Part shown: positions 11,941 through 13,626 of the stretch, in pieces | How positions within the stretch are numbered: the first letter of the stretch is position 1 | How the letters are laid out: each line of letters starts with the position of its first letter | The notes under the pieces: generated by a model | Told to the model about the DNA's origin: nothing | What the model saw: the letters and a program-made list of their open reading frames with translations, nothing else | Databases searched by the model: none | Source of the DNA: a virus | DNA length: 16,776 nt | Direction: 5' to 3' (one strand) | Virus genome (UHGV): UHGV-1844214 | Program-made: the position numbers and the translations under genes

Positions 11941-12252
11941 ATGATGATTCTGACTCTGAATGATAAGCGTGAAATATCGCAAATAATCGCAAGTTTTACT
12001 GATGAAGATTACGAGCGAATCAACAGTGAAGTTGATCGCCTCTGCAAACGTTGCGACCCAATAAGCGAAATGCTTCGCTCATATAAACCAGATGAACACA
12101 CTAAGGACGCTATCGACTGGCTGGAAGATGATGACTGTAACTATCAGGAAAAAGCCGCTGAATGGTTCTGGGATGCAATAACCGAAAGAGTTAAGGCTGA
12201 ATATGCCTTCGCAATATTCAAACGCAGACACATTTTTGGAGAAGCTGCATGA
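11941..12252 (+). CDS. Hypothetical protein (103 aa)
   Basis: ORF track; AGGAG SD; stop overlaps the recT start (ATGA). Sits where lambda has gam, but is not Gam-like. Confidence 0.5.
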   Translation: MMILTLNDKREISQIIASFTDEDYERINSEVDRLCKRCDPISEMLRSYKPDEHTKDAIDWLEDDDCNYQEKAAEWFWDAITERVKAEYAFAIFKRRHIFGEAA

Positions 12253-13160
12253 GCAATATCGTTGAATTCGTTAAACAGCAGGAGCAGTTATTCTGCGGAG
12301 CATTGACTGAACAGACGGTGACATGGGCTAAGGAAAGCCAGTTTGCAATTCAGTATTTCCAGAAAAACGATTACCTGGCTAAAACAGCACTGGCAAATCC
12401 AACCAGCGCACAGAACGCCATCATCAATGTTGCGGCGATCGGCATCACCTTAAACCCGGCCAGCAAACTGGCTTATCTGGTTCCTCGCGACGGCATGGTG
12501 TGCCTTGATATCAGCTATATGGGATTGCTCCATATTGCAATGGAGTCTGGTGTTATCTCATGGGGTCAGGCAAAACTTGTTCATGCTAACGATACCTATG
12601 AGTCAAACGGGCTTGATAAAGCACCAACCCATAAATACAACGCCTTCGGTGACCGTGGTGATATCGTTGGCGTTTACTGCACAGTTAAGACGCCAGCAGG
12701 TGATTATCTAACGGAAGAGATGAGTCTGGCTGAAATTGAGGCTGTAAGGAAAACAAGCAAGGCAGCATTCAGCGATAAAGGACCATGGGTAAATCACTGG
12801 AATGAGATGGCGCGAAAGACGGTCGTAAAGCGTGCAAGCAAGTATTGGCCTAAGGCATCACGCCTTGATAGTGCTATTCACGTACTAAACGAAGAAGAAG
12901 GCGTGTGGACCGAACCAGTTATGCCGCACAAATCAGAGGAAGATATCCGCGAAGATGAACGGAAACGCCAGCAGGAAATAATGGATAAAGCACAACTTCT
13001 TTGCGATGAAATGGCTCAGGCAGAAAACATGGATGATTTGAAGCGATATTTTGCAGAAGCATATCGCCTGACATCTGGAATGAAATTGCAGCAGAACGTA
13101 CAAGCCATTTACATAGAATGCAAAGCGAAACTGGAGGTTGCCAGTGAGCAAACTGTATGA
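12249..13160 (+). CDS. recT: RecT-family single-strand annealing protein (303 aa)
   Basis: Central region ..GPWVNHWNEMARKTVVKRASKYWP.. parallels Rac RecT (..GPWVTHWEEMAKKTAIRRLFKYLP..) as recalled; sits in the lambda bet position. Confidence 0.85.
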   Translation: MSNIVEFVKQQEQLFCGALTEQTVTWAKESQFAIQYFQKNDYLAKTALANPTSAQNAIINVAAIGITLNPASKLAYLVPRDGMVCLDISYMGLLHIAMESGVISWGQAKLVHANDTYESNGLDKAPTHKYNAFGDRGDIVGVYCTVKTPAGDYLTEEMSLAEIEAVRKTSKAAFSDKGPWVNHWNEMARKTVVKRASKYWPKASRLDSAIHVLNEEEGVWTEPVMPHKSEEDIREDERKRQQEIMDKAQLLCDEMAQAENMDDLKRYFAEAYRLTSGMKLQQNVQAIYIECKAKLEVASEQTV

Positions 13161-13626
13161 AATTGCCAATGAATACGCAAAATTGATGGATTCAGATTTA
13201 GAACCAGAGATGATTGCTGACACAATAGAAGGCATGGAAGGAGAATTTACCGATAAAATAGAGCAACTTCTTGCCATTATTAAAAATGAATCTGGTTATG
13301 CTGAACGCCTCAAGGAAGAGGCAAAGTCACTGAATGAGCGAGCCGCAGTAATTCAAAATAAGATTGGCAGCATTATGGCGTATATAGCGTCATCGCTTGA
13401 AATGGTTGGCAAGAAAAAGATTAGAGCAGGTATTCACCAGGTAACAATCCGCAAACCGTCAGAAACTGTAGAAATCATCGACTCAAGCGCCCTTCCTCCA
13501 GAATACGTTGAGTTTGAAACAACAATTAAAGCCGACAAACTGGCAATCAAACACCAATTAAAAGCAGGAATAAATATCCCCGGTGCTCAACTCAAGGTTG
13601 GGAAACCTTCACTTCTTATCAAATAA
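13144..13626 (+). CDS. Hypothetical coiled-coil protein (about 160 aa), tentatively Gp157 / Mu Gam-like
   Basis: GTG start 6 nt after GGAGG, overlapping the recT stop; N-terminal coiled-coil, C-terminal ..VTIRKPSETVEII.. loosely resembling Mu Gam (..VRPPSVSI..). Family assignment is from memory and weak. Confidence 0.45.
   Translation: MSKLYEIANEYAKLMDSDLEPEMIADTIEGMEGEFTDKIEQLLAIIKNESGYAERLKEEAKSLNERAAVIQNKIGSIMAYIASSLEMVGKKKIRAGIHQVTIRKPSETVEIIDSSALPPEYVEFETTIKADKLAIKHQLKAGINIPGAQLKVGKPSLLIK

Follow-up and report, generated by a model that had tools for sequence, protein, structure and literature searches.

A RecT annealase with a Gp157-family partner gene and no phage exonuclease in the early left operon of a lambdoid phage

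Recently, the recombination (Rec) modules of 325 lambdoid phages have been catalogued (Zheng, Casjens, Davidson, Amundsen & Smith, Genome Res 2025; PMC12315714). One of the named examples is phage HK140, which has a single-strand annealing protein (SAP) of sequence type 4 (the RecT type), no phage-encoded nuclease, no phage-encoded SSB (a protein that binds single-stranded DNA) and an anti-RecBCD protein labelled 'MuGam'. A nuclease gene is absent from 84 of the 246 enterobacterial Rec modules, and 46 phages fall in the functional class 'anti-RecBCD + SAP only', of which P22 is the prototype. Two neighbouring genes, encoding proteins of 103 and 104 amino acids (aa), are not counted as module genes in that study, and the shuffling of partner-interaction domains is left unanalysed there (PMC12315714). 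In this work, the recT locus of the UHGV virus genome UHGV-1844214 is compared with these systems; the window is the whole stretch of 16,776 nucleotides that was analysed. In this locus, recT is followed directly by a gene for a Sipho_Gp157 family protein (Gp157 from here on). Since the arrangement is described in Zheng et al. 2025, it is already known: real and widespread, not novel. Two leads go beyond that catalogue, namely the covariation of the RecT C-terminal tail with the partner gene, and the alternation of the 103-aa protein with Gam or GamL in one slot of the operon.

The window carries an HK140-type Rec module, which is placed between kil and the ea genes, in the leftward early operon, and is made up of a RecT annealase gene, directly followed by the Gp157/'MuGam' gene, with neither nuclease nor SSB. 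The gene order is that of HK140 gp42-gp39, and no material difference between the two modules was found. The block is ~98% identical to HK140 and mEpX1 at the nucleotide level, identities to the HK140 proteins range from 97 to 100% for the 103-aa protein, RecT, Gp157 and the 104-aa protein (98-100% if the N-domain of RecT is taken alone), and RecT is 100% identical to the RecT of mEpX1. Both central family assignments are firm. RecT matches PF03837 with 111.9 bits, against a cutoff of 24, and a further match is the Listeria RecT of known structure (PDB 7UB2, E 0.0044), while the Gp157 protein matches PF05565 with 125.7 bits (cutoff 28.6), residues 5-162 of the 162-aa open reading frame (ORF) aligning with profile positions 1-162 of 162. 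The same exonuclease-less order is shared by phage isolates (HK140, mEpX1, Kapi1, PA-1 and others) and by prophages from many genera, and 264 of 5426 complete Escherichia coli genomes contain recT with its neighbours at >=80% coverage. The Gp157 gene of mEpX1 (L199 25128-25568) has been annotated with 441 nt, 42 nt shorter than in HK140 and the window (483 nt, GTG start), which is probably a difference in start-codon annotation. In addition, two contigs of ~1.9 kb labelled Micromonospora sp. and Streptomyces sp. (L104 and L105) carry an enterobacterial-type 103-aa/RecT/Gp157 block with a RecT N-domain 79% identical to that of the window; these blocks are most likely contamination of those assemblies.

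Other described systems share parts of this arrangement. The lambda Red (gam-bet-exo) and the RecT-Exo modules of phi80 and Stx phages occupy the same position after kil and follow the same order of inhibitor slot, annealase and partner, and the N-domain of the window RecT is 68-76% identical to Exo-linked RecTs. Unlike these modules, the window has Gp157 instead of a 5'-3' exonuclease, another type of annealase tail, and unrelated 35-aa and 103-aa ORFs in the gam slot. The P22 and HK022 modules, with Erf and Abc2 (and Abc1 and Arf), likewise combine an annealase with small accessory proteins that handle RecBCD and have no phage exonuclease, and form a functional class in Zheng et al. (PMC12315714). 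However, their annealase is Erf and that of the window is RecT, and RecBCD is modified by Abc2, whereas DNA ends are the presumed target of Gp157. Abc2 (PF11043) was not found in the 20 PL-operon ORFs scanned, so that the module is not of the P22 Erf/Abc type.

An earlier note on this DNA had described a RecT without a recognisable partner exonuclease in the window, and Pfam, PHROG and tblastn searches all agree with this. No match to YqaJ/lambda-Exo, RecE, PD-(D/E)XK or DnaQ families was obtained for the 30 window ORFs of both strands against Pfam, or for 10 PL-operon ORFs against PHROGs, and tblastn of lambda Exo, the Exo homologs of phi346, Vibrio and PY100, and Rac RecE against the window gave nothing. 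An exonuclease hidden among the window ORFs was rejected on these negatives, and the small ORFs, one of which might according to the same note turn out to be a nuclease by homology, gave no nuclease match in the Pfam and PHROG scans. Also, no SSB match was found among the window ORFs scanned. Beside recT there is no 5'-3' double-stranded DNA exonuclease, and the two-component exonuclease and annealase arrangement of lambda Red, RecET and YqaJ-RecT is not present. The statement that RecT proteins normally pair with an exonuclease goes too far where lambdoid phages are concerned, given the share of nuclease-less modules in the published catalogue (84/246; PMC12315714).

The note had further considered that the exonuclease lies beyond the window or has been lost. 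In a matching E. coli prophage, lysis and structural genes lie beyond the left end of the window, and beyond its right end only int and the attachment site at the prophage end follow. No Exo, RecE or YqaJ-type gene is annotated in either complete genome, HK140 (40.7 kb) or mEpX1 (41.6 kb); HNH endonucleases, RusA and NinB are listed in these annotations. An exonuclease outside the window was discarded as a candidate for these reasons. Among the loci fetched for comparison, a lambda-Exo homolog was not found in the flanks (<=4-5 kb per side) of any locus with the Gp157-type RecT tail, and a RecE homolog was found in 0 of ~200.

Exo is encoded in sister modules whose RecT N-domain is closely related, which could mean that the window holds a decayed remnant, in which the exonuclease gene has been deleted and RecT is being lost as well, or in which the exonuclease sits just outside the window. 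This explanation is barely credible. The exonuclease-less arrangement is kept in >20 divergent loci with intact frames and overlapping start and stop codons, in phages and prophages of many genera, and its RecT and Gp157 proteins are 59-82% identical at the amino acid level. The proteins are thus conserved while synonymous sites are saturated (dN 0.12-0.28), which points to purifying selection and not to recent decay; as dS is saturated, the dN/dS ratio is not computable and this conclusion is qualitative only. No frameshifted exo remnants lie between recT and gp157, because the two genes overlap. The presence of the region in the 264 E. coli genomes and the int gene and attachment site next to the window also speak against a remnant.

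The feature of the window RecT that covaries with the partner gene is its C-terminal tail. Using tblastn, many RecTs align with the window RecT over residues 1 to ~220-233 alone, and its last ~79 residues were recovered from 24 phage records only, including an Erf-family protein from Pantoea phage PdC23. In an alignment, the tail motif LCxxMxxAxxMxxLKxxFxxAYxMTxGxxLQxxVQxxY is common to the RecTs of HK639, PA-1, KO-TP1 and Aeromonas phiA005 and to the PdC23 Erf, and a different tail is present in the RecTs of phi346, Vibrio phage 1.198.B and Yersinia PY100; the five Gp157-linked RecTs aligned share one tail and the three Exo-linked ones share another. In the motif-tail loci a 483-nt Gp157 gene lies directly downstream, in PdC23 after an inserted HNH gene, and in the other three loci a lambda-Exo homolog lies directly downstream. 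A Gp157 gene follows in every locus examined among the 24 tail-bearing records, in 12 of 13 species-level genome loci (the contig of the 13th is incomplete) and in all 10 more divergent viral loci. An IMG/VR sample retrieved with an Exo-linked RecT as query contained 44 loci with the other tail and Exo, 34 with this tail and Gp157, and 0 discordant loci. In addition, 80 of 80 near-identical IMG/VR loci have the order 103-aa/RecT/Gp157/104-aa, with no Exo in the flanks fetched (<=5 kb per side).

The N-domain is distributed in another way. Homologs of it that are 52-82% identical to the window occur with both partner types, and the identities are interleaved between the two classes, such that the Exo-linked Vibrio RecT (76%) is closer to the window than the Gp157-linked RecT of HK639 (73%). 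In locus L101 the N-domain is 98% identical to that of the window, and the tail and Gp157 are each 64% identical, which indicates recombination joints at the domain boundary. Within the Gp157 class, the tail correlates with Gp157 (Mantel r 0.80) more strongly than the N-domain does (0.54), and the partial correlations are 0.38 for the tail and 0.06 for the N-domain. In Red-beta, the C-terminal domain binds both lambda Exo and SSB, and the C-terminal residues of RecT have been predicted to form a partner-binding domain (PMC9772228). By analogy with Red-beta, the simplest reading of the covariation would be that the tail docks RecT onto Gp157. A search of the tail against the PDB gave spurious designed-repeat matches only. 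An HNH endonuclease gene or an insert of ~450 nt is observed between the annealase gene and gp157 in PdC23 (L005 4147-4611), in L099 (5180-5631) and in phage Louie; this looks like mobile insertion into an otherwise overlapping gene pair.

The same data can be read along the lines of the published default. There, Gp157 is a Mu-Gam-like RecBCD blocker that is uncoupled from RecT, RecT anneals single-stranded DNA at forks or gaps, the tail serves host SSB binding or oligomerisation, and the association with Gp157 is a matter of linkage. We regard this as possible but doubtful. It agrees with the MuGam anti-RecBCD class of Zheng et al. 2025 (PMC12315714) and with the PHROG label, and Red-beta and RecT are able to recombine oligonucleotides without Exo, the C-terminal domain of Red-beta binding SSB as well (PMC9772228). 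Linkage is also expected, as the tail-coding end adjoins gp157. However, the recombination joint lies at the boundary between the RecT N-domain and the tail and not at a gene boundary, as seen in L101 and in the PdC23 Erf. The tail type also differs within one host, HK140 and phi346 both being phages of E. coli, and thus does not track the host SSB. Furthermore, Gp157 holds the Exo slot and not the Gam slot, and in 11 loci it stands together with Gam or GamL, where a second RecBCD blocker would be redundant.

In the earlier note, the gene downstream of recT was called weakly Mu Gam/Gp157-like. The match to Mu Gam is weak (PF07352, E 0.01, 16.2 bits, below the cutoff of 28.3), but that to Gp157 is not, the PF05565 match being strong and of full length (Table 1). 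Using hhalign, 71 diverse Gp157 sequences were aligned with 11 Mu Gam sequences at a probability of 3.7% and E 0.011, a weak match that is nevertheless in register (columns 45-158 versus 47-160, ~105 columns). Mu Gam is a Ku-like end-binding protein of similar length to Gp157, and the weak Pfam and hhalign alignments cover about two thirds of each; the similarity of Gp157 is below the family thresholds, and Mu has no annealase partner. The PHROG label of the family is 'Mu Gam-like end protection', and Zheng et al. use the label MuGam (PMC12315714); neither hhalign nor Foldseek gave independent confirmation of a Mu Gam identity. No Ku or Gam structure was present among the matches listed by the fold searches, so that a Ku-like fold was not recovered, and Foldseek of the Gp157 model against BFVD returned other Gp157 or 'resistance' proteins and no named Mu Gam. 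The AlphaFold2 model (predicted local distance difference test score, pLDDT, of 82.7) consists of a short helix, a helix of 68 residues (21-88) and a small beta-rich C-terminal domain.

The Gp157 family is large, with 6756 representative clusters found in a single-sequence search (E <= 0.001, library clustered at 50% identity). In firmicute phages, genes for Gp157, Mu-Gam-like, DUF1351 or DUF2483 proteins adjoin erf or sak4, often without an exonuclease (PMC8093625). In these modules Gp157 lies upstream of erf or sak4, and RecTs usually occur with YqaJ/DUF3799 exonucleases, whereas in the window Gp157 lies downstream of RecT (PMC8093625). Gp157 co-occurs with genuine Gam or GamL in 11 loci, about half of the non-redundant loci, and because of this co-occurrence a role other than, or beyond, the blocking of RecBCD is suggested.

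Gp157 holds the exact slot of the lambda-Exo homolog in the sister RecT modules. This position could also be taken to mean that Gp157, the 103-aa protein or the 104-aa protein represents an exonuclease of a new type, or brings in an exonuclease as a stable subunit, and when the Gp157 model was compared with BFVD using Foldseek, phage nucleases were matched weakly (E 5.5e-3 to 0.9): the 398-aa PDDEXK_1/DUF2800 protein of Tsukamurella phage TIN4 (orf36, L119 36642-37838, minus strand), YqaJ/COG5377 proteins and a RecB-like exonuclease. We consider an unrecognised nuclease very improbable. In the 71 diverse Gp157 sequences K38 is the sole invariant residue and D26 the sole nearly invariant acidic residue, which argues against a nuclease active site, as no nuclease-like catalytic constellation is present. 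The model is a long helix with a small beta domain, and the weak fold matches may reflect a Gp157-like accessory domain in those nucleases or the long helix alone; the similarity to the TIN4 protein is too weak for interpretation. The two small proteins are also poor candidates, the 103-aa protein being all-helical and acidic and the 104-aa protein a basic protein of helix-turn-helix (HTH) repeats.

The gam position was said in the earlier note to be taken by a 35-aa and a 103-aa ORF, and this is correct, as both lie between kil and recT, where lambda has gam directly after kil. The 35-aa ORF is acidic (pI 4.3), and matching small ORFs are conserved in two distant prophages of Erwinia and Enterobacter (L099 and L101). 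The 103-aa protein is acidic as well, with pI 4.65 and a net charge of -9, compared with pI 4.59 and -8 for the 94-aa GamL and -8 for lambda Gam; its AlphaFold2 model (pLDDT 73) is entirely alpha-helical. In the slot immediately upstream of the annealase gene, the phrog_3486 family, to which this protein belongs, is found in 11 loci and lambda Gam or GamL in another 11, and the two are mutually exclusive. The phrog_3486 loci include Pantoea phage PA-1, whose protein is ~31% identical to the 103-aa protein. No match to Pfam was obtained for the 103-aa protein, hhalign against GamL gave a probability of 0.2%, Foldseek of the model against the PDB returned nothing at E below 3.8, and a PDB sequence search also gave no match. 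By these searches the 103-aa protein does not group with Gam or GamL, which it resembles in position, size and charge only. Because of the slot position and the mutual exclusivity with Gam and GamL, a role as RecBCD antagonist, and candidate Gam-slot analog, is plausible. In more divergent modules (L109-L118, L104, L007), the place before the 103-aa homolog is held not by the acidic 35-aa ORF but by one for a conserved basic peptide of 37-38 aa, MNxPFNTAQFTARAAIxLRSPALWAMAMVQLKQAWRSK, which is possibly Kil-like.

The account that we favour, with modest confidence, is that of an HK140-type Rec module in which Gp157 acts as the docked end partner of RecT and resection is carried out by host nucleases. 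The products of the module are a single-strand annealing protein of the RecT family and a protein of the Sipho_Gp157 family, with no phage exonuclease or SSB. Gp157, probably as a coiled-coil dimer, would bind double-strand DNA ends and keep RecBCD off. RecT would dock on Gp157 through its C-terminal tail, like the C-terminal domain of Red-beta on lambda Exo, and this docking would bring RecT to ends or nascent single strands. Resection in the 5'-3' direction would be left to host RecJ/RecQ or to a restrained RecBCD; alternatively, RecT may use single-stranded DNA at the replication fork. The acidic 103-aa protein could be a further antagonist of host nucleases (RecBCD), because it alternates with lambda Gam and GamL in the slot. 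Among the options of the earlier note, the combination of a host nuclease with a nuclease inhibitor appears most consistent with the evidence, and it fits the published class of annealase plus 'MuGam' (PMC12315714). A more far-reaching version is offered tentatively. In this version, Gp157 would be a non-nucleolytic replacement of Exo and an end-binding adaptor, RecT and Erf annealases would dock on it via a portable tail of ~60 residues, host nucleases would resect, and phrog_3486 would be a previously unrecognised antagonist of RecBCD or host nucleases that replaces Gam and GamL.

Several points weigh against the favoured account. End binding by Gp157 would be borrowed from a family in which its membership is unproven, and is proposed from a family resemblance that the tests leave open. 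Where Gp157 and Gam or GamL occur together, in the 11 loci, a pure anti-RecBCD role of Gp157 would be redundant. As the tail is encoded next to gp157, physical linkage alone would yield part of the tail-Gp157 covariation and could give rise to it, many of the loci are near-identical copies and not independent events, and the tail might bind host SSB instead of Gp157. Neither in sequence nor in fold is the 103-aa protein similar to Gam or GamL, and the literature searched gave no experiment on Gp157, on a RecT of the window type or on the 103-aa protein. The distribution of Chi sites is a further point. According to a published rule, phages bearing an anti-RecBCD gene are mostly without Chi. 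The Chi sequence (GCTGGTGG) occurs 4 times in HK140 (L001 2143, 13519, 15106 and 16201) and 6 times in mEpX1 (L199 2050, 12134, 14142, 15729, 16824 and 40060), in both genomes always on the top strand and 0 times on the bottom strand, against an expectation of ~0.6 per strand. These numbers are unexpected if RecBCD is fully blocked; they could mean that RecBCD is merely restrained. Chi occurs 0 times in the window and 0 times in 26.7 kb of Kapi1, whose virion module differs. The sites, nearly all of which lie in structural genes, may travel with that module.

The gene after gp157 encodes the 104-aa protein, which has a pI of 10 and two HTH-like repeats of ~45 aa. Of the 24 loci scored, 14 have a protein of this type downstream of Gp157. 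It weakly resembles Mu gp9 (L014 1983-2282; pairwise BLASTP E 8e-5), which belongs to the same PHROG 323. The gene for Mu gp9 is found immediately upstream of Mu gam, so that a phrog_323-type HTH protein is found beside the Gam or Gp157 gene in both Mu and the window; a Gam-like gene and a gene for a small DNA-binding protein are thus adjacent in two very different phages.

The window as a whole, of 16.8 kb, is the early region of a lambdoid phage or prophage, as assigned using Pfam and PHROG (Table 1). It spans the lysis genes through cI and N to xis and ends with the final base of the xis stop codon. Between kil and recT, each gene runs into the next: the stop codon of kil shares bases with the ATG of the 35-aa ORF (ATGA), the 35-aa ORF overlaps the 103-aa ORF, and the stop of the latter overlaps the recT ATG. 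The GTG of the Gp157 gene lies inside the end of recT, with GGAGG 8 nt upstream of it. In the N ORF, the N36 antitermination peptide opens at residue 32 (MDAQTRRRERRAEKQAQWKAA), and the true start of N is probably the internal ATG at this peptide. The gene for the Nmad5 protein is also present in phage Kapi1.

Table 1. Features of the 16,776-nt window, with positions counted from its first base
Feature	Position	Strand	Assignment or remark
Block, from the cro end outward: cro, cII, O-like replication gene, DnaB-type helicase, NinB, Dam, NinE, NinG, phosphatase, Q, holin	354-8680	-	
Leftward early operon, in order: cI, N, Nmad5 protein, small ORFs, cIII, kil, 35-aa, 103-aa, recT, Gp157, 104-aa, DUF2737, DUF7446, Ead/Ea22, DUF551, excisionase		+	
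cI	8579-9280	+	
N	9525-9941	+	Listed ORF start is TTG
Nmad5 protein, just after N	9893-10576	+	PF18757 'nucleotide modification associated domain 5', E 2e-70
cIII, start of the block	11588-11722	+	Pfam cIII PF08134, E 2e-30
kil	11707-11859	+	Pfam Lambda_Kil PF06301, E 1.7e-20
35-aa ORF (ATG), first occupant of the gam slot	11856-11963	+	No Pfam match
103-aa ORF, directly upstream of recT	11941-12252	+	phrog_3486, E 3.7e-59
recT, 303 aa	12249-13160	+	PF03837, E 3.7e-32; phrog_148, E 5.9e-92
RecT N-terminal annealing domain and linker, residues ~1-238	12249-12965	+	PF03837 over residues 31-217
RecT C-terminal helical tail of ~60 aa, partner-linked module	12966-13160	+	
Sipho_Gp157 family protein, 160 aa, GTG start at 13144	13144-13626	+	PF05565, E 2.2e-36; phrog_253, E 7e-53
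104-aa basic protein, two HTH-like repeats	13638-13952	+	phrog_11492/phrog_323, E 1e-22 and 3e-19

The missing exonuclease is not peculiar to this window, as about a third of the lambdoid Rec modules have no nuclease (PMC12315714). The Gp157 family is very large and adjoins annealases in phages of both Gram-negative and Gram-positive bacteria. The covariation of tail and partner provides a design rule for recombineering, in which an annealase and the partner suited to its tail are kept together. Should the 103-aa protein turn out to be a Gam analog, a new family of RecBCD inhibitors would be added, with a bearing on defence systems such as Gabija and retrons, which sense the inhibition of RecBCD.

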